A stretch of 64,000 nucleotides of DNA from Cyanobacteria bacterium P01_F01_bin.150 (GTDB taxonomy: Bacteria; Cyanobacteriota; Cyanobacteriia; CAKZMO01): positions 1-64,000 of the forward strand of contig JBCCYL010000007.1 of NCBI GenBank assembly GCA_039189765.1, written 5' to 3'. Shown in pieces: positions 42,043 to 64,000 of the stretch (the stretch's first letter is position 1; every line of letters starts with the position of its first letter). The position numbers and the translations under genes are program-made. The notes beneath the pieces are model-generated. The model saw only the letters and a list, made by a program, of their open reading frames with translations. It did not search any database and was not told the origin of the DNA.

Positions 42043-43983
42043 ATGAGCATTTTCACCTGGCGATCGGTCAAAAAAGACTTTGGCATTAAAGAGATTCTTC
42101 GGGACGCCAGTTTCAGTATTGATGAATCTGATAAGGTGGGAGTCATTGGCACCAATGGTTCTGGTAAGTCCACCGTGCTCAAAATGTTAGCAGGTATTGA
42201 ATCCATTGACAGTGGAGACTTTCAGGTCAACCCGAACGTCCGCATAGTGTATCTTCCACAGCAGCCTGATATGGCGGACAATAATACGGTCCTCGAACAG
42301 GTCTTTGCGGATACCGGAGAACAGATGGCCTTGGTGAAAGAATATGAGGACCTGTCCCAGCGTATGGCTCAGGCGGAAGGGGCCGAGATGGAAAAATTGA
42401 TGACCCGACTCTCTGGGGTGACGGAAAAAATGGATGCCACCGGGGCTTGGGAGCTGGAAACTAAGGCGAAGATCGTCCTGAGTAAATTGGGCATTGAAAA
42501 TTTTGGCGATCGCGTTGGCACCCTCTCCGGCGGCTACCGCAAACGCATTGCCCTAGCCACCGCTCTCCTGTCCGATCCAGATATTCTGCTGATGGATGAG
42601 CCAACGAACCACCTAGATGCCGAGTCGGTGGAATGGCTCCAAGATTACCTTAAGCAGTTTCGCGGGGCACTGTTACTAATCACCCACGATCGGTATTTCT
42701 TAGATAGGGTGACCAATCGCATTATCGAAATCGATCGGGGCGATCTTTACACCTACAGCGGCAACTACTCCTACTATTTGCAAAAGAAAGCGGAGCAAGA
42801 AGAGTCGGCCCTCAGCAGTCAGAAAAAGCATGCGGGCATTTTGCGGCGAGAGCTGGCGTGGTTACGCCAGGGGCCTAAGGCCCGGAGTACTAAGCAACGA
42901 GCACGGATCGATCGCATTGAGGACCTTAAGAATAAGGAATTTAAGGAGGCCCAGGGTAAAGTTGATATTACAACGCCTGGACGCCGCATTGGTAAAACCG
43001 TGATTGAGATGGAAGGGATTAGTAAAGGGTATGGCGATCGCAACCTAATTCAAGACTTTACCTACGAATTCTCCCCCGAAGACCGGGTCGGCATCATCGG
43101 CGGCAACGGTGTCGGCAAGTCCACCTTGATGGATATGATCACCGGACGCCTTGAGCCGGACACGGGGCGGGTCAATATTGGCAGTACCATCCACATCGGT
43201 TATTTTGATCAGCACTCTGACGATCTCCAAGCTGCTCTAAACGAAGATGAACGGGTGATCGACTATATCAAGGAAGAAGGCGAATTTGTCGAAACGGCAG
43301 ATGGCTCTAAAATTAGTGCTTCCCAGATGTTGGAGAGATTTCTATTTCCGGGCAATCAACAATATGCACCCATTCATAAACTGTCAGGGGGCGAAAAGCG
43401 GCGGCTGTTTTTGCTACGAGTATTAATGGGTGCGCCCAATGTGCTGATACTGGACGAGCCAACCAATGATTTGGACGTGCAAACCTTAGCCATTTTGGAA
43501 GAGTATCTGGAAAGCTTTAACGGCTGTGTGATTACCGTATCCCACGATCGCTATTTTCTAGACCGGGTTGTTCAACGGATTTTTGCCTTTGAAGCCCAGG
43601 GCCTGGTGAGACAGTATCCCGGTAACTATTCCATGTACTTGGACTTTAAAGCCCGTCAAGGGCCAGACTTTCAAGGCGACTCAGCAAGTATCGATTCAAA
43701 AGAAGAATCTTCCAAAGCAAAAGCGAAAGCAGCTAAACCCAAGCACTCGTCTGGACCTCGTAAACTCTCCTATAAAGAAAAACGAGAGTTGGAAACCCTA
43801 GAGACCCAAATTCCAGAGATGGAGGCTGAAAAAGAGACGATTGAACAGCAGCTTTATAGTAATCCGCCATTAGACTATACAGAGGTTGAAGCCCTGACAA
43901 AGCGGCTGGCTGAGTTGGATGAGACGATTGATCAGTCCACAGAACGCTGGATGGAGTTAGAAGAAATTGCCTCTCAGGAGTAG
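42043..43983 (+). CDS. ABC-F family ATPase (Uup-like)
   Basis: Two ABC domains (GTNGSGKST/LSGG/DEPTNHLD; GGNGVGKST/LSGGE/DEPTNDLD), no TM, C-terminal 'KLSYKEKRELE...ERWMEL' coiled coil. Confidence 0.94.
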   Translation: MSIFTWRSVKKDFGIKEILRDASFSIDESDKVGVIGTNGSGKSTVLKMLAGIESIDSGDFQVNPNVRIVYLPQQPDMADNNTVLEQVFADTGEQMALVKEYEDLSQRMAQAEGAEMEKLMTRLSGVTEKMDATGAWELETKAKIVLSKLGIENFGDRVGTLSGGYRKRIALATALLSDPDILLMDEPTNHLDAESVEWLQDYLKQFRGALLLITHDRYFLDRVTNRIIEIDRGDLYTYSGNYSYYLQKKAEQEESALSSQKKHAGILRRELAWLRQGPKARSTKQRARIDRIEDLKNKEFKEAQGKVDITTPGRRIGKTVIEMEGISKGYGDRNLIQDFTYEFSPEDRVGIIGGNGVGKSTLMDMITGRLEPDTGRVNIGSTIHIGYFDQHSDDLQAALNEDERVIDYIKEEGEFVETADGSKISASQMLERFLFPGNQQYAPIHKLSGGEKRRLFLLRVLMGAPNVLILDEPTNDLDVQTLAILEEYLESFNGCVITVSHDRYFLDRVVQRIFAFEAQGLVRQYPGNYSMYLDFKARQGPDFQGDSASIDSKEESSKAKAKAAKPKHSSGPRKLSYKEKRELETLETQIPEMEAEKETIEQQLYSNPPLDYTEVEALTKRLAELDETIDQSTERWMELEEIASQE

Positions 43984-44026: not shown

Positions 44027-47000
44027 TTAATCCTCAATAAAAATAATGCCAGAAGCCAGTGGAGTCTGCTTAAAGCTTACGTTGTCTCGTTTTTCTTCAA
44101 TACTTTTGAGTTTGATGTCTAGTTCACGATTGACTTTTCTCAACTGTCCCTCTGTAGCGGGAATAATTTGAGTTTTCCCCTCCTGTCGGAATCTCTCTAA
44201 ACGAGTGCTCAGCTCTTTCTGTCTCCTTGCTGCAAATGCCCTGGCGCTATTTTCCTGAGTATTGCAGCGATTATCATTGTCAATATAAAAGTCATCTATG
44301 GCCTGACCATAGGTATCCTCAAGGTAGGCATCACACTGCTTTTGGCGCTCAATAAGGCGATCGCTATTACCAACAAAGTTATGGGCATTGGGCTTTAAAC
44401 GTCCATATTTCATTAACGTTGCTAAGACTGATTCTGATTGCTGGTCGGACAGAAATTGTTTATCGTTAACGTTGATAATTTTATAGGCTAGCTGACTCTC
44501 GGTTTTGAGCCCCTGAAACGTCCAGACATGTACAGAGTAAGCATACAGTCCTGGCACCAGCTTTACGGTATTGGGAGAGGCTTGAATTGCCGAAACGGGG
44601 TGTAGGGACTGGGCCGCAGTGGCGTAGCGATCGCGTATCCAAAGAATCAGTGGATGGGTCGGATCAAGCAACTCATTACTTTGGCCCATATGGTCTGACT
44701 GCTTGGGGTTAAAAAAGCAGCCAATTGGAGACCCAGAAGTATGTAAACGAGTCGGGGTCACGCAACGGTTCTGGCTAACAAAAAAGCCTAAGTCAACTTT
44801 AGCTTTTTCCGATAGGCTAATGTGAAATAGACCTGGAGAGCTGGCCAAGGGCTTAATTATGGTGCCGGGATAGTAACGGGCAAAACAATCTTCTACAAAC
44901 GACTGCATTTCTTCTGGCTGTAGCCATCGTCCTTGTTCTCGGCTGTTATTAATTGAATCTAAAATATGGTCTGAAAAGGCCATCATATTGACGGCTTCAT
45001 TTTCCAGTTCTGTTTGTAGCAGCTTATTTTTTTTCAGGGCATCGCCTGTTTCAATCGCTCGCTTTTCCTTTTCTGCTGGAGATAAGTTGGGATTAAATAA
45101 TTCCGCGATCAGCTCCTCGGTCATATCGCCCAGAATATTTTCTAAGTCGCCAATACTTTCCTTAAAAATATCAATCCGCTCGTACAGCTTTTCTAGAATT
45201 CTTTCTTCGACAGTATTGACTAAGCTGAAATTTATAATGGAAATTCGTTCTGCTTTTTGCCCCAATCGATCCAAACGGCCAATGCGCTGTTCCACTCGCA
45301 TCGGGTTCCAGGGTAAATCATAGTTGACTAAAAAATGGCAGTGCTGGAGGTCGATGCCTTCGCTGCCAACTTCAGAGGAGAGCAAAACGGAGGGACCATC
45401 GTCTTGGCGGAAGTGCTCGACTACATCCCATTTGCGATCGCCCATATCCCCCATAATTAAGCAGGTAGAAATCCTATCTGCCTTTAGCCGCCGTTCTAAG
45501 TAGGTCAATGTTCCTCGAAAGTAGGCAAAAATTACAAACTTCTCGGCGGGATTTGCATCGAGAGTGTCTTTTAGAAACTCGACTAACTGAGCGTATTTAC
45601 TATCCTGAGCTTCTAGCTTTTCAATCCACATGGATGGGGACACGTTGGGAGAAAAGAGAGGCCTTGAGCGATCGCGTTGATTCGACGATGCAAAGTATGG
45701 ATCGCCTGGTTCTCGGAGCTGAGGAGAAACGCCAAAGTCTTCCCAAAGGGATTCATTTACCAAATCGTCAAGAATACCGTCTGACTGCCAGGTTTCCAGA
45801 GCGGCTACCATGCAGCTAGCCATTTGTCGTTGCCGAGCCACCAGGCTCAGTAACGATGTGCCCTTTTGTCCTTGGGCCTGTTGGCGAATTTCTTCCGTAA
45901 CCGTTTCATAAATTTGGCGTTCGGGTTCAGAAAAGTGGACCGTCAACGTTTGGGGATCGCGTTTGACTCGATTTGGCAAAACATCACGTTTACGACTGCG
46001 GGTCAGGTATTGGCTTAGTAGGGAGACTTTTTCCAGTTTGTAGCCAAGGTCAACTCGCTGATCGTCGGTGAGGCGATCGCTCCCCTCCAGGGTCTGAGCA
46101 ATTTGCTTTATCAGCGCATTTTCTACAAAGTAGCTGGACTTAGACGCTTGCTGTACTGATTCTTTAGCCTTAGGAGCGTTGGCAGGTTTAGTCCATAAAT
46201 AACGCAGGGCATGGACCACAGGCTGATTGGCCTCCAGCATCTGATCAAACACATCCTCATTAAAAAAATCTTCTGGACTCAGCAACCGCAGAAGCTGATA
46301 TAGATTTGTACTATCGGTTTGAATCGGCGTTGCCGTTAGCAACAGCAGATGATGGGATGCGTCTCTTGCTAGCTGACCAATTCGATGATTGGCGGTGGTG
46401 GCATTTCGCAGATAGTGAGCCTCATCAATAATCACCAGATTAAACAGACTAAACTCATTGCTGGCAGGATTATCGTCCAAAAGTCGAGCCAGTTCAGCCC
46501 TCGCACTGGTTGCCCTTGGCTCTTCCCATCCGCTGGGCGGACGTAAGCCTTCCAAACTGGCAATACAAACAAACGAGGGCTGTTTACGCTGGTTTTCCAG
46601 ACAGAGCCTAGAACGATTTAGCAGCTCCTTAGCATCCACAATATCAGCAAAAATATTAAACCGCTGGAGTAAATCATCCTGCCACTTCTGCCGCAGCATG
46701 GCGGGGCAAATAATTAACAAGCGCCGAGCATCTTCACGGCTCTGGAGTTCTTTCCAGATGTACATTGCCTCAACGGTTTTACCCAACCCCACCTCATCCG
46801 CAATCAAAATTCTCCCCACAGGAGAATTCAAAAATTTAAGCACAGGCTTAAACTGGTGGGCATAGAATGTGGTCTGGCTTGATTCCATGCTGTAAAACAC
46901 ATTTGTAAGCTGTCCCTTCAGTTTTTCAAAGGTCAGAATTCGCCGCAGATCGTCCGGCCCCCCATACCTCCCCTGCCGCATTAAGCCAGCAATACTATCA

Positions 47001-47185
47001 TCATCTCCACACAGCTCCAGAAGATTTTGGGGTTTGTACGTTTTTTCTGCTGGTCCAAACTGTACTTCAACCAAGAGCCTTGTTCCAGCTTGACGAACTT
47101 TTCCTGTCGTTTTGCCGCGTCGCCCTGGATTGGATTTCAATCGAACGTCTTGATCCGCAATTTCTGGATTCCATGTTTGAGCCAT
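44027..47185 (-). CDS. SNF2-family (RapA/DrmD-like) helicase
   Basis: ADEVGLGKT, DEAH, LLTATP, SEVGSEGIDLQ and NYDLPWNPMRVEQRIGRLDRLGQ motifs; long C-terminal extension. Confidence 0.93.
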   Translation of the reverse strand: MAQTWNPEIADQDVRLKSNPGRRGKTTGKVRQAGTRLLVEVQFGPAEKTYKPQNLLELCGDDDSIAGLMRQGRYGGPDDLRRILTFEKLKGQLTNVFYSMESSQTTFYAHQFKPVLKFLNSPVGRILIADEVGLGKTVEAMYIWKELQSREDARRLLIICPAMLRQKWQDDLLQRFNIFADIVDAKELLNRSRLCLENQRKQPSFVCIASLEGLRPPSGWEEPRATSARAELARLLDDNPASNEFSLFNLVIIDEAHYLRNATTANHRIGQLARDASHHLLLLTATPIQTDSTNLYQLLRLLSPEDFFNEDVFDQMLEANQPVVHALRYLWTKPANAPKAKESVQQASKSSYFVENALIKQIAQTLEGSDRLTDDQRVDLGYKLEKVSLLSQYLTRSRKRDVLPNRVKRDPQTLTVHFSEPERQIYETVTEEIRQQAQGQKGTSLLSLVARQRQMASCMVAALETWQSDGILDDLVNESLWEDFGVSPQLREPGDPYFASSNQRDRSRPLFSPNVSPSMWIEKLEAQDSKYAQLVEFLKDTLDANPAEKFVIFAYFRGTLTYLERRLKADRISTCLIMGDMGDRKWDVVEHFRQDDGPSVLLSSEVGSEGIDLQHCHFLVNYDLPWNPMRVEQRIGRLDRLGQKAERISIINFSLVNTVEERILEKLYERIDIFKESIGDLENILGDMTEELIAELFNPNLSPAEKEKRAIETGDALKKNKLLQTELENEAVNMMAFSDHILDSINNSREQGRWLQPEEMQSFVEDCFARYYPGTIIKPLASSPGLFHISLSEKAKVDLGFFVSQNRCVTPTRLHTSGSPIGCFFNPKQSDHMGQSNELLDPTHPLILWIRDRYATAAQSLHPVSAIQASPNTVKLVPGLYAYSVHVWTFQGLKTESQLAYKIINVNDKQFLSDQQSESVLATLMKYGRLKPNAHNFVGNSDRLIERQKQCDAYLEDTYGQAIDDFYIDNDNRCNTQENSARAFAARRQKELSTRLERFRQEGKTQIIPATEGQLRKVNRELDIKLKSIEEKRDNVSFKQTPLASGIIFIED

Positions 47186-47197
47186 CGCGATCGCCTC

Positions 47198-49609
47198 CTA
47201 GGTCATATCTTTGGTATCGCCATAGTGCATTGGCCCGTCAAAAGCCTCATAGGACGATGAATCATCTGATTCGACTTGACTGGGAAGACGGATAGCTGGC
47301 CCTTCCCAATTTGGAATACACAATCCATAAGCCACAGCAAAGCGATTAAAGTTAACGGGATCAATGCCATTAATCGCTAAATTTTTAGGCGGCGGGATGT
47401 CTTTAATTTCATAGGGGGGAATGCTCGCAGAGCCTTGGTTAAACTCTGCGTGAGTCGATTGAATGGTTGTTCGGAAAAAGGGCGTATTTCCTCCACCACC
47501 GCCGACAAAGACGTTTAAGGTTGCATCCAAATCATTTTTATACATGCCACCACGGGCGTCCTGATGCTTCTCGTTGCCATCCATCACTACCGACGCCACA
47601 AGTCTCTGCACATTAAGGCGGGTGGTACTATCCTGTAGCTTGTCATGGAGGGTTTGATCATAGAGTTCAGGATCTGGATTGAGTGAAGAGAGCTGTTGTT
47701 CGGATGCTCTGTTGCCATTTGAGGCTAACATCATGCGAATTTGATGGGACGTACTGCCTAATTCTTTAGCGGCTTGCTGGGCAAAGGCCGTTACCCCTAA
47801 AGGCTGTACCTCCCCTTTGTAGAAATCAACATACTTCCCTCCATCCTGTCGCCAGAACCGAAACGCGGCCCCATCTAACGTACCGTCGCCAATATCAAAG
47901 AATGTATAGAAGCCTTCCTGAGCTTCCCGTGAATCTAAAAATGACCAAACCGCTGCGGCAATTTCCGGTGTCGTCGCACAATCGAGTTCTTGAACTGCGT
48001 TATCAACCATCCATTTTTCTAAATGATCGAGCAATTGTGTTAATGAGGACAATGTCACATTGGGTGTGTTAAGGTCGGTCTGACTTAGGACCCAAGCTAG
48101 AGATAAGACCTTTTGAAATCTGGCTAAAGCAGGAGAATCACAGTATTCTACGGGCACTCCGACATTGATACTCCACCGAACGGTTTGATTGGTCAATAAG
48201 TCAGCATGGTGGCTTTTAATCCATTTTTGGGCACGTTGGATAACCTGACTGAGATAGTAAGCGCTCAAGCGTTCTACTATTATTGGATCATCAAGCTCTG
48301 GCAATTTCTCCAAACGCCATAAAGACTCTGAAGAGGACTCTGACGGTAAATCAAGGTCCGCTAACCGCATTTTAATAAAGTCGATAGTCTGTTCAATACA
48401 GTAGTCTCCTTCTTCCCATTCCGCTAAGGTTAAACCGGTTAGAAGCGTTCCGTCTTCAAGAATAGCGAGTTTAGTGGGAATTAAGGTTTGTTCTAACGGT
48501 AGCGGATGCTCTAACGTATTGATATCGACAAAGGTGACAATTTCAGCCTGATCTCGACTCAAGTCACGAAAACAAACCTTGGTAAATCCTGTCCCAAAGT
48601 CAATTCCAATGTTGAGATCAATATCGTAGTCTTTGCCCGCTGTGGGAAGCTGAGGCACTATATTGTGCCACTGATCCCTGATTAGAGATTCTGAGGATGG
48701 GAGCTGATCTGGATCTGGAGGAATTTCTCTGGCAGAAGACTCAGACGGCGGCTCGGATGGCGCTGGAATAGATCGAAATTCAATCCGCAGGCTGTTAATC
48801 TCTTGCTGAAGCTGAGTCAACAATTCTGAGAGTTGAGTGACATCGGTATCCAATCTGCGGGTCTGTTGATCAACCTCAGTTCTCTGATCCGCAAATGCTT
48901 GCTGCTGAGTTGCAAATGCCTGCTGTTGAGTTTGAGTAAACTGCTGGAGTTGAGATTGCTGGGATGCAAAGGTTTGTTGCTGAGTCTGGGTAAGCTGCTG
49001 AAATCGATCGTCAATTTTCTGGTCGATTTGGTCAAGCTGATCGATTTTGTTGGCGATCGCATCCACCGACGGCAAAAGCTGTTCTAGCTGGGTTGTCCAG
49101 GTATCGACACTCGACACCCGGGCAAATGTGGCCATTTGCTGGTCATGCTGGTTGAGGCGATCGCGCAACTCTCCAACCACATCAGTAAAAGCTTGAACCT
49201 GCTGACTAAGCTCTTGACGCAGGGTTTGTTCTAGAGCCTGAAGTTGAGCTAAGTTATGATTGGTCTGGGGGTCGGGCTGTTCCTGCCGCTGTTCCTGCTG
49301 TTGTTCAAATCGCTGGGCCAAGGCATTCAGCTCTTGCTGGAGCTTCTGTGTATGCTTGGAAAATCCATCGACCCGTCGTTCAAGTTGCTGGACAGAGGTG
49401 TTGGCTTGGGCCAGATGCTGGTCGATATGCTTTGATATTTGCTGTTCTTGCTGACGACGGCTGGCAAGATTAAGAGCAACAGTCACGGAAAGGGGAATAA
49501 CGGAGTAGGCAATTTGCTGGGTGGCGATCGCAATAATGGAGCCGATCCCTGATGCAGAGGCAGATGCATACTCCGCAATATTGAGCAACGAGCGATGATG
49601 AGACGACAT
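47198..49609 (-). CDS. Membrane-anchored coiled-coil protein with C-terminal Hsp70/actin-like ATPase domain
   Basis: N-terminal hydrophobic hairpin and a Gln-rich coiled coil, then IGIDFGTGFTK (phosphate-1), VGVP, PEIAAA (connect-1), FDIGDGTLD (phosphate-2), VFVGGGG (adenosine) and AVAYGL (connect-2). Confidence 0.8.
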   Translation of the reverse strand: MSSHHRSLLNIAEYASASASGIGSIIAIATQQIAYSVIPLSVTVALNLASRRQQEQQISKHIDQHLAQANTSVQQLERRVDGFSKHTQKLQQELNALAQRFEQQQEQRQEQPDPQTNHNLAQLQALEQTLRQELSQQVQAFTDVVGELRDRLNQHDQQMATFARVSSVDTWTTQLEQLLPSVDAIANKIDQLDQIDQKIDDRFQQLTQTQQQTFASQQSQLQQFTQTQQQAFATQQQAFADQRTEVDQQTRRLDTDVTQLSELLTQLQQEINSLRIEFRSIPAPSEPPSESSAREIPPDPDQLPSSESLIRDQWHNIVPQLPTAGKDYDIDLNIGIDFGTGFTKVCFRDLSRDQAEIVTFVDINTLEHPLPLEQTLIPTKLAILEDGTLLTGLTLAEWEEGDYCIEQTIDFIKMRLADLDLPSESSSESLWRLEKLPELDDPIIVERLSAYYLSQVIQRAQKWIKSHHADLLTNQTVRWSINVGVPVEYCDSPALARFQKVLSLAWVLSQTDLNTPNVTLSSLTQLLDHLEKWMVDNAVQELDCATTPEIAAAVWSFLDSREAQEGFYTFFDIGDGTLDGAAFRFWRQDGGKYVDFYKGEVQPLGVTAFAQQAAKELGSTSHQIRMMLASNGNRASEQQLSSLNPDPELYDQTLHDKLQDSTTRLNVQRLVASVVMDGNEKHQDARGGMYKNDLDATLNVFVGGGGGNTPFFRTTIQSTHAEFNQGSASIPPYEIKDIPPPKNLAINGIDPVNFNRFAVAYGLCIPNWEGPAIRLPSQVESDDSSSYEAFDGPMHYGDTKDMT

Positions 49610-49886
49610 GAGGCTACAGAAATTATCCTAAAAGAGTGGACCTACTGGGCATAATTCCCAAGAATAGACGTTCATTATTCATGCAATGGCAACCTCGATG
49701 ATTTTCTTAAAGTTTTCACCGCCTAAGAAACACGACGTGTTTTTTTAATTTTGGATGTGTTATGTCGGTGGAGCCTACACATTAAAGGCTCAGTTCTTAA
49801 ATCCGATGGTATTCAACTTCATGCAGCCAAGTGGCTGTTCTAGAATAAAAGTACTTCACCAAATCTTTTAGGACTTCTTGGGTAGC

Positions 49887-50528
49887 ATGGCGACAACAGA
49901 TTCTCTATCAGGCAAAACTAATAAGAAAAATTTCTCTAGCTTTTCTAAAAAAGAAGCATTTAAAGCTCTGGATCTGAAGGATCTAACTCAGTGGAATATT
50001 GAAGCACCTCCTCTTGCTCCCAGTCCGTTTCTAAAGGAAAGACTGGCGCGGCTACAGCGTCACTTTGACTTAGACAGTGGGGAAGAAGCGAAAAAGTTAC
50101 TGATCGACGCTCTATGTGATGAAGCCCTGGAATCGTGCGATCGCCTCAAAATCTGGAAATCAGCCAGCCTAGAAGGAGAACACACAAATGGGGTTGCCGA
50201 TTACCTGGTGGCTGAACGAAAACGGTATTTAGAAGCCCCTTTTCTGTGTATTGTTGAAGCCAAAAAAGATGACTTTGAACAGGGTTTAGCCCAATGTTTA
50301 GTGGAAATGAATGCCTGTGCCTGGACTAATCAGCAAGTCGGACAATCCCTCGATATTATTGGCATTGTGACCAATGGAGAGGGATGGAAGTTTTATAAAT
50401 ATGCCCGTGATGGCTCCATTTACGAAACGCTACTGTTTTCCATCAGCAACCTCGGTGATGTACTAGGGGTCTTGCATTTCCTATTCCATCAATGTGAGTC
50501 CCAACTGGTTGCGGCTGAAAATGAATAA
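49887..50528 (+). CDS. PD-(D/E)XK restriction-endonuclease-like protein (HsdR N-terminal-like)
   Basis: 'GVADYLV...CIVEAKKDDFEQGLAQCLVEM...GIVTNGEGWKF' pattern. Start moved to ATG 49887. Confidence 0.75.
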   Translation: MATTDSLSGKTNKKNFSSFSKKEAFKALDLKDLTQWNIEAPPLAPSPFLKERLARLQRHFDLDSGEEAKKLLIDALCDEALESCDRLKIWKSASLEGEHTNGVADYLVAERKRYLEAPFLCIVEAKKDDFEQGLAQCLVEMNACAWTNQQVGQSLDIIGIVTNGEGWKFYKYARDGSIYETLLFSISNLGDVLGVLHFLFHQCESQLVAAENE

Positions 50529-61772: not shown

Positions 61773-64000
61773 CTAGAGGCAATTAGAAACAGGCGCTAAG
61801 CTCAAAGATCTGTTGGCGGTCAACTGGATTGAACCATCCGAAGCCACAGTAAATTCTGTAGCTTCTTGAGGATGGGCGTGGATTTTCATGGCAGAGTGAT
61901 TAGTGGGAGGGGCAGAAGAGACTGTTGCGCTCTCAATGGTCTCAGGAATAGTTCCAAAATCAGGAAAAATGTGATACCAGGAGCGATCGCTGTTTCCATC
62001 TGGCTCTGTAGATAACCCACCCTGTCCGATTATGACAAAGTAACTTCCTTGGGCTACGTTACAGGATGTCGAAATAGCTTGAGTCACATCAGTAATGGTG
62101 GTGGGCAGGATGACTGCCGCACTGCTTGGGTCAATGTCGGGAGTTGTAATCTGGACAGTCCCGCTAATTCCTGATTGTGAGCTAGCTGTAATATCGTTCC
62201 CATCTGTCAATCTATCTCTGACGGCTAAGTTAAATAATCCCTCTGTTGTAATTTGAATATTGCCTCCATCTCCATCAAAGGCATTGGCGACAATATCGCT
62301 ATTGCCAGTTGCAGCCAAAAACGGTGATGTAATTGTAATGTTGCCACCATTGCCACCATCTCCCTGCCCTGTACCTGCTTGGGTAGAAATGGCCCCTTCT
62401 CCTCCCCTGTCGGCTAAAATCAAACCCCGATCAATATCGAGAGTGATATTACCGCCACCGCTTTGTTCGCTAAGAGCCGTTATGGCTCCGTTATCTAAAA
62501 TTAGAGTACCGATATCCATTGTTACGTTGCCCGCTCTGGCTTCCTGAGGGAATGACGAGGCTGTAGAAACTGAAGGCGATCTGGATTGAGATCGCGATCG
62601 CCTATTGCTGAATAAACCATCAAAGTTGATTGTGTCTGCACTAGCGGAGACTTCTGCTCCATTTTGAATTAGGAGTAGAGGAGCTGTGACCATAATGTCG
62701 CCGCCTAACCCACTAGCCTCTATTTCAGTCTCTGACGAGAGTAATCGTTGTGCGCCTGCTGATAACCCACTAGCGAATAAACCATCCGAAGGAGAGCGAC
62801 CATCTAATAAAACTTGACCAGATGCTTGAACGGTCAGATTCCCCGCATTCCCCTCACCAAAGGTAGCGGATAAAAACTGCCCTCCGTCTCGAAAGCCTAG
62901 AGTGTTAGTCTCAATCTCGATGTTTCCGGCTGTACCCCTACCAAATGTTGATGTCGTCAATACGGAACCAATAACCTCAATATCTGTTGCTACAACATCA
63001 ATATTTCCCCCAGTACCATCTTTAAAAGCTGAGCTAGCGATAATCCCGCCATTCTGTAAGTGAAGCTGTTCAGAGGTGATTTGAATTTGTCCCGCTTGCC
63101 CTTCTTCTAAGGCAAACGTGCCGATGCCTTGGGTGAAATTATCAGGGCTAAAGGTATTGGTAAACGCAGGCAAAATAGCATTTTGGCGTAAATCTTCACT
63201 GCCCGTACCCATAATATTGATGTCTATGGCTTGAATGTTAATATTGCCTCCATTCCCAGACGTTGTCGTAGAGGCGTTGATTAAGCCATTGTCTAAGATC
63301 AAGTTATGGGTATCAAGGTTAATATCGCCACCGCTGCCTGTGATGGTTGTGGCTGCAATTGTCCCCTGATTTACAAGCTCAGTTGTATTAGTTTCAATCT
63401 CCAGTTCTCCTGAGTCTCCAGAACCCTCCACAATCAAAGATATAGCCGCCTGATCTGAGATTTTTAAGTTGGGAGTTGTAATTGAAATATCGCCAGCATT
63501 CCCCTCCAGACTGTCGTCTAAGCCTAAAACTTGCCGACTCGTGTCATCAACAACAGTCACTTCAGAGCTAATCCGACTCCGAGTCAAGTCATCTGCAAAA
63601 GGGTTAGGAATAGCCCCTCTAACTAAGATTCGCTCTGATGCATGAATATCAAGACTACCCGCATTACCATCACTGATACTCGACGAGTCGATAATATTGC
63701 CATCCAGAATCTCTAATAATCGCGTGTTTATCTCAACAGTTCCGGCATTCCCAGACCCTAGAGTGGCCGAAGAGATTCCAGAGCCACTTAATTGATTGTT
63801 ATTGCCTGTAAGGCGAATGGAATCAGCCTGAATTGAAATATTTCCGCTATTCCCTTGCCCAATTAGGGTAGAAGAGGCAATCACTGCGCCATCTTTTACT
63901 ATCAAATTGCCTGTTTGAAGGTCGATATTTCCGGCATTTCCTCTTCCCCCAATGGCTGTCGCACGAATGGTGCTGACCTCTGTGCCAATTGGCGAGACTA
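61773..64000 (-). CDS. Filamentous-haemagglutinin/S-layer-family TpsA-like exoprotein (5' part beyond window)
   Basis: The frame stays open from 63905 to the window end. GNAG.I.I beta-helix repeats; C-terminal 'NDITASS..G.SG.V.I..PDIDPS' and 'F.I.GQGGL' shared with 36432-39095. Confidence 0.88.
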   Translation of the reverse strand, partial: VSPIGTEVSTIRATAIGGRGNAGNIDLQTGNLIVKDGAVIASSTLIGQGNSGNISIQADSIRLTGNNNQLSGSGISSATLGSGNAGTVEINTRLLEILDGNIIDSSSISDGNAGSLDIHASERILVRGAIPNPFADDLTRSRISSEVTVVDDTSRQVLGLDDSLEGNAGDISITTPNLKISDQAAISLIVEGSGDSGELEIETNTTELVNQGTIAATTITGSGGDINLDTHNLILDNGLINASTTTSGNGGNINIQAIDINIMGTGSEDLRQNAILPAFTNTFSPDNFTQGIGTFALEEGQAGQIQITSEQLHLQNGGIIASSAFKDGTGGNIDVVATDIEVIGSVLTTSTFGRGTAGNIEIETNTLGFRDGGQFLSATFGEGNAGNLTVQASGQVLLDGRSPSDGLFASGLSAGAQRLLSSETEIEASGLGGDIMVTAPLLLIQNGAEVSASADTINFDGLFSNRRSRSQSRSPSVSTASSFPQEARAGNVTMDIGTLILDNGAITALSEQSGGGNITLDIDRGLILADRGGEGAISTQAGTGQGDGGNGGNITITSPFLAATGNSDIVANAFDGDGGNIQITTEGLFNLAVRDRLTDGNDITASSQSGISGTVQITTPDIDPSSAAVILPTTITDVTQAISTSCNVAQGSYFVIIGQGGLSTEPDGNSDRSWYHIFPDFGTIPETIESATVSSAPPTNHSAMKIHAHPQEATEFTVASDGSIQLTANRSLSLAPVSNCL

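Follow-up and report, generated by a model that had tools for sequence, protein, structure and literature searches.

A co-inherited gene pair encoding an Hsp70-type ATPase and a RapA-like SNF2 protein in a cyanobacterial genome: a candidate defence module

Introduction

A contig of Cyanobacteria bacterium P01_F01_bin.150 (JBCCYL010000007.1, positions 1 to 64,000; this stretch of 64,000 nucleotides is called the window below) carries two adjacent genes, one for a divergent ATPase of the Hsp70/actin (ASKHA) fold (gene 1) and the other for an ATPase of the SNF2 type (gene 2). An earlier reading made from the letters alone (the sequence-only reading) regarded them as a possible new two-gene defence module, in which a membrane-anchored ATPase would be the sensor and the SNF2 protein a DNA translocase. 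This raises the question of whether the two genes belong together and, if they do, what they are for. Our analyses indicate that the pair is real, conserved and apparently unnamed in the literature, and point, with less assurance, to a role in defence. The features discussed are the following, in window coordinates.

47198 to 49609, minus strand: gene 1, ATPase of 803 amino acids (aa), with hydrophobic hairpin, Gln-rich coiled coil and ASKHA domain (direct translation)
49454 to 49582, minus strand: N-terminal hydrophobic hairpin of gene 1, about aa 10-52, candidate membrane tether
48761 to 49453, minus strand: Gln-rich predicted coiled coil of gene 1, about aa 53-283, spacer-like
47201 to 48637, minus strand: Hsp70-type nucleotide-binding domain (NBD) of gene 1, aa 325-803 (AlphaFold2 (AF2) model, Foldseek, motif conservation)
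47186 to 47199, minus strand: intergenic spacer of 12 nucleotides (nt), where AGGAGG (47199-47194) overlaps the TAG of gene 1
44027 to 47185, minus strand: gene 2, RapA-fold SNF2 ATPase of 1052 aa (direct translation)
45206 to 46873, minus strand: SF2 motor core of gene 2, about aa 105-660, with GKT, DEAH, TATP and QRIGR motifs
44030 to 44983, minus strand: RapA-like C-terminal region of gene 2, about aa 735-1052, of which aa 735-930, together with aa 1-93, are kept in motor-less relatives

The two genes are inherited as a unit

Among 351 genomes of the source's class, the SNF2 gene was found in 23 and the ATPase gene in 23. Both are present in 22, always adjacent and on one strand; that is, 22 of the 24 genomes with either gene carry both, and the two exceptions are an SNF2 gene on a contig of 3002 bp and a partial ATPase match. 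A wider survey took the best 80 of 203 loci from genomes and the best 80 of 366 from metagenomes; the two sets partly overlap, and related loci in them are not independent (L numbers below are our labels for surveyed loci). An SNF2 homologue lies at most 800 nt from the ATPase gene in 77 of the 80 genome loci, with a full-length cognate in 65. The others comprise four loci cut by a contig end, eight short or split, and three without SNF2; in one of these three an intact SNF2 gene lies elsewhere, on a separate contig. In the metagenome loci an SNF2 neighbour was detected in 67 of 80 (58 strong and nine partial); the other 13 consist of six with short flanks, two missed by the caller of open reading frames (ORFs) and five with the ATPase apparently alone.

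Gene trees were reconstructed for 61 intact pairs (the 80 loci minus 19 partial or broken ones, with the window pair added). The patristic distances of the two trees correlate at r = 0.968, a value that mixes co-transfer with shared descent; none of 2000 permutations was as high, and 39 of 58 splits are common to both trees. No third gene family occurs at more than nine of the 80 loci. The hosts of the pair include cyanobacteria, alpha- and gammaproteobacteria, spirochaetes and Binatia; that of the window pair is itself cyanobacterial in gene content, judging by a CP47 gene and the closest homologues. Adjacency also survives a swap in gene order (see below). The two-gene module proposed earlier is thus borne out as far as its unity is concerned, and the pair is almost certainly a conserved functional unit.

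We also consider it likely that the two products form a physical complex. A complex prediction for SNF2 aa 528-1052 with the ATPase domain (93 paired rows, no controls folded) scored 0.26 against a mark of 0.32, and covariation between the proteins over 110 pairs (effective number 71) was at the level of noise, with no usable contacts. At L017, L020, L034, L035, L037, L045, L056 and L070 one gene or both are split or truncated, in one case beside an IS66 transposase; the cause is either faulty assembly or a module that often decays.

Gene 1 contains an Hsp70-type nucleotide-binding domain

No Pfam, NCBIfam or PADLOC family matched aa 325-803 of gene 1, and the whole protein gave nothing in these collections beyond weak coiled-coil matches. 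Searching PDB sequences with the alignment of the full-length protein gave nothing but coiled-coil noise. The best structural match of the AF2 model of the domain (predicted local distance difference test, pLDDT, 90.9) is the NBD of HSP110 (Z 24.0, root-mean-square deviation (rmsd) 3.7, 324 residues aligned), tied with those of Ssb1, BiP and Sse1; the filament actins come next (BeeR Z 21.8, MreB 20.9, ParM 19.0). Foldseek gave DnaK at E 8.5e-11.

All five ASKHA motifs (phosphate 1, connect 1, phosphate 2, adenosine and connect 2) are present. All 110 paired homologues share D337, G339, T340, K344, K413, E549, D572, G574, G576, T577, G704 and R756 without exception. A Lys and a Glu of BiP have catalytic roles, and in a profile alignment K413 and E549 fall on them. 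Since these twelve ATP-site residues are invariant, the gene 1 protein is probably an active ATPase. Its DxGxxxxK and P-E motifs we take to resemble those of ParM and actin. The substrate-binding domain is absent, the model stopping about 30 residues past connect 2, and Pfam HSP70 at E<=0.01 matched none of 79 family members. The earlier description of a divergent Hsp70-like domain with five motifs and no substrate-binding domain therefore agrees with both model and alignment. The ATPase family comprises 1611 representatives at 50% identity; of the best 150, which were examined, 102 are 400-600 aa long.

The N-terminal extension distinguishes two subtypes

The hydrophobic hairpin and Gln-rich coil at the start of gene 1, noticed earlier, are present, Gln making up 25% of residues 50-285. 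The hydrophobicity of the hairpin is moderate (best 19-residue Kyte-Doolittle mean 1.46), as in 89 homologous hairpins (median 1.47; 16 of 89 at 1.6 or above), and membrane anchoring is plausible from these values. The extension ranges from 222 to 1031 aa across the 89 homologues, and it therefore behaves as a spacer. The same hairpin-plus-coil start also heads cyanobacterial WD40 and TPR proteins, for example a 516-aa WD40 protein (L013:4272-5819, minus strand) and a TPR protein of 1503 codons (L115:3953-8461, minus strand), and it resembles further cyanobacterial clusters. This start is apparently a module without a name that cyanobacteria have reused widely, and in gene 1 it would be a borrowed tether and spacer and not the core of the system.

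The widespread form of the pair has SNF2 first, followed by a short ATPase (43 of 80 genome loci). The form in the window has the ATPase first, and the hairpin is found in 31 of 34 such loci. In each of the two trees the ATPase-first loci group together as a single clade (27 of 27; support 0.999 and 0.992), nested among cyanobacterial SNF2-first loci. We therefore infer that one rearrangement moved the ATPase ahead and added a host N-terminal module, and that the window pair is a derived, probably membrane-tethered variant. The idea of a membrane-anchored sensor thus holds in that anchoring is plausible, but anchoring does not define the family: the hairpin is present in only 21 of the best 150 ATPase representatives and in none of the 43 SNF2-first loci.

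Gene 2 encodes a RapA-like SNF2 motor

The 1052-aa protein is an SNF2 ATPase, as had been read from the sequence, and belongs to a distinct SNF2 subfamily with an N-terminal beta-domain, an SF2 motor and RapA-like C-terminal domains. SNF2 motifs I, II, III, V and VI are intact; K136, D254, E255, Q633, R634 and R637 are invariant in 110 of 110 pairs, and across these the motor motifs are all invariant or nearly so. The AlphaFold model (pLDDT 81.2) aligns with RapA over 798 residues (model residues 64-1052; Z 23.1, rmsd 11.1; Foldseek E 1.5e-36), leaving the N-terminal 60 residues unaligned. The model, together with the description of BrxHII (PMC12839542), suggests that the N-terminal beta-domain may be a Tudor domain. 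Gene 2 misses all the curated cut-offs that we compared, namely DrmD NF038317 (446.1 vs 610, the match covering aa 61-1035), RapA (173.5 vs 576) and ZorD (30.6 vs 1500). No nuclease domain was recognised in gene 2 by fold searches with the whole protein.

Some relatives have lost the motor

Four loci (L048, L052, L059 and L076) have, immediately upstream of the ATPase gene, an uninterrupted ORF of 457-739 aa which retains homology to SNF2 aa 1-93 and about 735-930, together with a degenerate first lobe, and which lacks the second RecA lobe (RecA2) and the GKT motif (Walker A). Comparison by hhalign gave a probability of 98% for the C-terminal part of the motor-less partner. An intact member of the SNF2 subfamily was not found elsewhere in the genomes of these four loci, and in L048, L052 and L059 the ATPase has lost none of the 15 key residues checked. 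The L048 and L052 forms go back to a single origin, with 32% identity between their partners, which means that the motor-less state has lasted. A word search of low sensitivity for more such relatives returned only the query.

Loss of the motor with retention of the ATPase suggests that the two proteins are linked through the non-motor domains of the SNF2 protein and that a lineage can retain the ATPase when translocation is gone; this in turn points to the Hsp70-like protein as the output. The assignment implied earlier, with the ATPase as sensor, may be the reverse of the real one, since the motor is the part that these lineages dropped.

The pair often lies near defence genes

The distribution of the pair is patchy (6.6% of the class sample; four of 21 relatives). 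It was found in four of 72,556 plasmid records, once beside a CRISPR I-D locus. There were no matches in 50,697 phage records, and IMG/VR gave one weak partial match. At L129 and L244 the gene order is drmD-[pair]-drmMI-drmA-drmB-drmC, i.e., the pair lies inside a complete DISARM system, and at L190 it lies between DrmD and DrmMI. Other defence neighbours are CBASS, HmaB/HmaC, SspH, AbiE, BrxL, PDC-S68 and restriction genes; this list derives partly from a hand-picked set of 67. Embedding in DISARM, BREX or restriction-modification (RM) loci has been argued to predict a defence function (Payne et al., 10.1101/2024.01.29.577857).

In the metagenome loci, 20 of 69 immediate neighbours (71 minus two near-duplicates) match PADLOC at E<=1e-60; they come from 17 of 50 loci, and only two of nine ATPase-first metagenome loci have such a neighbour. 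A matched test was made in 18 genomes with the genes within two positions of the pair; three of the 22 genomes were omitted (contigs without neighbours) and the window was treated apart. PADLOC matches at E<=1e-30 occurred in 12 of 66 neighbour proteins and in three of 72 controls (Fisher p 0.012). The expected enrichment in defence islands is thus seen in that relatives often lie in or beside defence systems, but it is weak for the long, ATPase-first subtype, and there is none in the window. The proposal of a new two-gene defence module fares likewise: the pair is co-inherited and unnamed, but the enrichment that would speak for defence is weak in the subtype to which the window pair belongs. 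On balance we lean, by a small degree, towards the pair being a defence module.

Outside cyanobacteria, a 1250-aa RecD-like helicase (L051:11416-15180) recurrently flanks the pair on either side; it was also seen at L066, L067, L069, L073, L075, L077, L198, L217, L218 and L237, and corresponds to PDC-S68 where scanned. It is possibly a recurring co-location or a third component.

The pair differs from named systems

The earlier statement that the pair fits no nameable system stands for those tested, which were DISARM, RapA, PDC-M61, CoCoNuT, Zorya, BREX, Hma and ARMADA. We found no description of the pair in the literature; subscription papers and supplements (10.1101/2024.01.29.577857, tables S3-8; PMC12839542) may hold one.

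One close comparison is with DrmD of class 1 DISARM, a RapA-like SNF2 protein of about 1050 aa whose relatives include BrxHII (BREX type 3), ArmA (ARMADA), IetH (IetHAS) and the helicases of BR systems; the pair, as noted, is found inside DISARM operons. BrxHII shares with gene 2 the layout of a beta-domain, a helicase and two alpha+beta domains (PMC12839542). However, the gene 2 subfamily is only 24% identical to the true DrmD encoded next door in L041, and it is partnered by an ASKHA ATPase instead of a methylase or DrmABC. Class 1 DISARM has a drmA, drmB and drmC core with drmD and drmMI in an operon (10.1101/2021.12.28.474362). The DrmA and DrmB profiles had no match in the source genome (99.09% complete), and DrmMI gave weak partial matches on other contigs. 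Assignment of the pair to class 1 DISARM was rejected: the window has no Drm genes, the NF038317 cut-off is missed, and true DrmD is separate. PADLOC profile PDLC02623, labelled DrmD, scores gene 2 at 1026 bits, whereas the true DrmD proteins, encoded next to the pair, are matched by PDLC02621 (1111-1142 bits). PDLC02623 thus fits the ATPase-linked SNF2 and not canonical DrmD, a mismatch that probably stems from the occurrence of the pair inside DISARM loci. This is a trap for annotation, a profile with a DrmD label giving more than 1000 bits to a different SNF2 subfamily.

RapA (HepA) is the best structural match of gene 2, in the motor as well as in the C-terminal alpha+beta domains, but gene 2 is only 18-20% identical to it, falls below its cut-off, and is patchy, mobile and paired with an ATPase. 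Similarly, the gene 1 domain has the fold of the Hsp70/Hsp110 NBD, but unlike Hsp70 chaperones it has no substrate-binding domain and no Pfam HSP70 match. Hsp70-like proteins have been described in predicted conflict systems, namely CnuD with McrBC in CoCoNuT type III (PMC11090510) and HSP70 with GTPases in GAP1-N2 and DO-GTPase systems (PMC7159879). In contrast, the pair has no McrBC or GTPase partner, and its ATP-site residues are invariant, not degenerate. CoCoNuT type III was therefore rejected, as there is no common third gene in the 80 loci and no McrB/McrC-type neighbour. Membership in PDC-M61 was rejected as well. The PDC-M61B profile gave weak matches in 35 of 79 ATPase family members (best E 6.8e-9), but it misses the gene 1 domain and matches other Hsp70-like genes in the genome. 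Two Hsp70-like genes of about 560 codons with weak PDC-M61B matches were noted at G000:C14:87034-87579 and C97:35617-36174. Zorya I, BREX type 3, Hma and ARMADA were rejected because none of the cognate partners checked (ZorABC; BrxC, PglZ and methylase; HmaBC; YprA helicase and methylase) is in the window.

In eukaryotic remodellers of the SWI/SNF and INO80 kinds, a Snf2 ATPase works with actin/Arp modules. The pair may be compared with these by analogy, a Snf2 ATPase being tied to an actin-fold partner in both, but gene 1 is nearer to Hsp70 than to actin and the Arps (Z 24 vs 16-17).

Possible functions of the pair

The best explanation at present, to which we give an even chance, is a stand-alone two-gene module against invaders (phages or plasmids) whose products act as one complex. 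The SNF2 protein would be the sensor, engaging a protein-DNA complex in the manner of RapA, most likely RNA polymerase or a replication or transcription intermediate. Contacts might be made by the N-terminal beta-domain and the RapA-like C-terminal domains while the motor scans or remodels DNA. The Hsp70-like domain would be an ATP-gated switch held by the non-motor domains of SNF2 and, as the output, would be released or activated on infection, bind a host target or self-assemble, and so stall the cell or the invader. In the cyanobacterial clade, the hairpin and long coiled coil would probably hold the ATPase at the membrane. Granted a defence function, this assignment of sensor and output is tentative and falls a little short of an even call. 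A bolder version is doubtful. It would be an immune module of a new class, with an Hsp70/actin-fold effector that works through assembly driven by ATP or through capture of a target. A RapA-like SNF2 protein, monitoring RNA polymerase or DNA for their state, would restrain this effector and could decay to an adaptor without a motor; in one cyanobacterial clade the effector would have been moved to a membrane on a long coiled-coil stalk. If true, it would be an independently evolved prokaryotic counterpart of the Snf2-actin/Arp partnership.

Several observations weigh against a defence module with these roles. Counted per locus, any PADLOC match occurs at seven of 18 loci and at three of 18 controls (p 0.26), and clear systems, by our own judgement, at four of 18 and none of 18 (p 0.10); of the 11 loci of the long subtype, only one shows a clear system, and related genomes in the enrichment test are not independent. 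Among the other 35 genes of the window there is no defence gene, generic kinase, helicase, cyclase and ABC genes and a PD-(D/E)xK gene aside, and neither protein has a recognisable effector domain. The composition of the pair is native (GC 46.9% vs 46.7%; nine HIP1 sites in its 5.6 kb vs 1.07 per kb), and the pair is therefore not a recent island. The motor-less forms amount to four loci, two of them with long ATPase branches; L076 has an ATPase without the adenosine motif, and these forms could be decaying. All 110 intact pairs keep the motor motifs unchanged; in most lineages, then, the motor is important. Finally, one metagenome clade (L235, L238, L239, L240 and L242) has the ATPase without an SNF2 neighbour. 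In this clade the key residues are intact in the two members checked, L238 and L242, and at L238 a peptidoglycan-binding protein is encoded upstream.

The alternative that survives best, though we think it unlikely, is a housekeeping or stress accessory: a RapA-like factor clearing RNA polymerase or R-loops, with a dedicated Hsp70-like regulator; in cyanobacteria the long form may have been domesticated and tethered to a membrane. The full-length structural match of gene 2 to RapA, an RNA polymerase recycling factor (10.1101/2024.09.28.614012), agrees with it, as does the finding that gene 2 is the best match to the RapA profile in the source genome, where no protein passes the cut-off; the long-subtype loci, moreover, have mostly housekeeping neighbours and native composition. 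A housekeeping factor, however, is hard to reconcile with presence in only 23 of 351 genomes, with a position unconserved within the genus, or with occurrence in DISARM and on plasmids; the RapA score is far from its cut-off, and motor-less partners are unable to translocate.

Two further explanations are quite improbable, and to the same degree. In the first, the SNF2 motor would itself be the effector, stripping proteins from incoming DNA or remodelling it, but would act solely as an accessory to a DISARM, Hma or RM system of the same cell, with the ATPase licensing it. The repeated position of the pair inside or at the edge of such operons and the PDLC02623 match fit this, and other systems recruit related helicases (IetH, PMC13069673; ArmA, PMC12458937). 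However, the source genome has no DrmA or DrmB matches, third gene families stay at or below nine of 80 loci, and forms without a motor exist. In the second, the pair would be a selfish addiction (toxin-antitoxin-like) or actin-like filament module, with a toxic or polymerising ASKHA protein neutralised or positioned by the SNF2-derived protein, and defence islands would merely be landing sites of such cassettes. Tight coupling in both gene orders, a motor that is dispensable in four loci, and the nearness of the filament-forming actins to Hsp70s in structural score would be expected of such a module, but an active motor of 1050 aa is a costly antitoxin, the pair is mostly chromosomal, and one clade has the ATPase without its partner. 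That the genes are chance neighbours with separate functions, as one genome with the two intact genes on different contigs might hint, is refuted by their adjacent co-occurrence, congruent trees and persistence through the gene-order swap, and we give it practically no weight.

We know of no tested anti-phage system that uses a bare Hsp70-type NBD. To our knowledge, the mechanism of the RapA-like helicases of DISARM, BREX, ARMADA and Hma is not known either, and the pair, in which the catalytic residues of both proteins are clear, offers the simplest setting for finding out what such a helicase does. The natural variants (short soluble, long tethered, motor-less partner and solo ATPase) are ready-made dissections.

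Genomic context of the pair

The co-orientation of the genes, their 12-nt distance and the AGGAGG ribosome-binding site overlapping the upstream TAG, all reported earlier, are present in the sequence; AGGAGG lies 8 nt ahead of the gene 2 ATG, and the spacer holds one GCGATCGC (HIP1) site. A fusion by stop-codon readthrough was rejected: the two genes are in frame here, but elsewhere only in six of 26 ATPase-first and five of 34 SNF2-first loci, as expected by chance. No fused ATPase-SNF2 protein was found among five long homologues (920-2625 aa) or 261 proteins, which is weak evidence. A promoter and terminator scan gave only chance-level results at the locus. The flanking genes are:

42043 to 43983, plus strand: ABC-F ATPase, convergent with gene 2 (context only)
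49878 to 50528, plus strand: PD-(D/E)xK-type protein of 216 aa, PADLOC PD_DExK E 1.3e-39 (context only)

The sequence-only reading placed the pair between housekeeping genes (ABC-F and cyaC). Both are there, but it did not mention the PD-(D/E)xK gene, which lies between the pair and cyaC and is divergent from gene 1. The ABC-F gene is not beside the pair in relatives, where the genomic position of the pair is not conserved even within the genus. An empty site was not found in relatives because flanking synteny is not kept there. Recent insertion was rejected, as neither flanking repeats nor a compositional step was found. The PD-(D/E)xK protein has paralogues on 16 contigs of the source genome, and its gene is not beside cyaC in the relatives examined.

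Distantly related second Hsp70-like genes were seen in runs of genes encoding 612, 250, 501 and 429 aa (L206:7571-9900) and 561, 529, 546 and 325 aa (L163:8001), which are perhaps another Hsp70-like system. The reading frame of gene 2 is open on the minus strand only, with 48 stops on the plus strand, and the window ORF at 61773-63905 is likewise open on the minus strand only.

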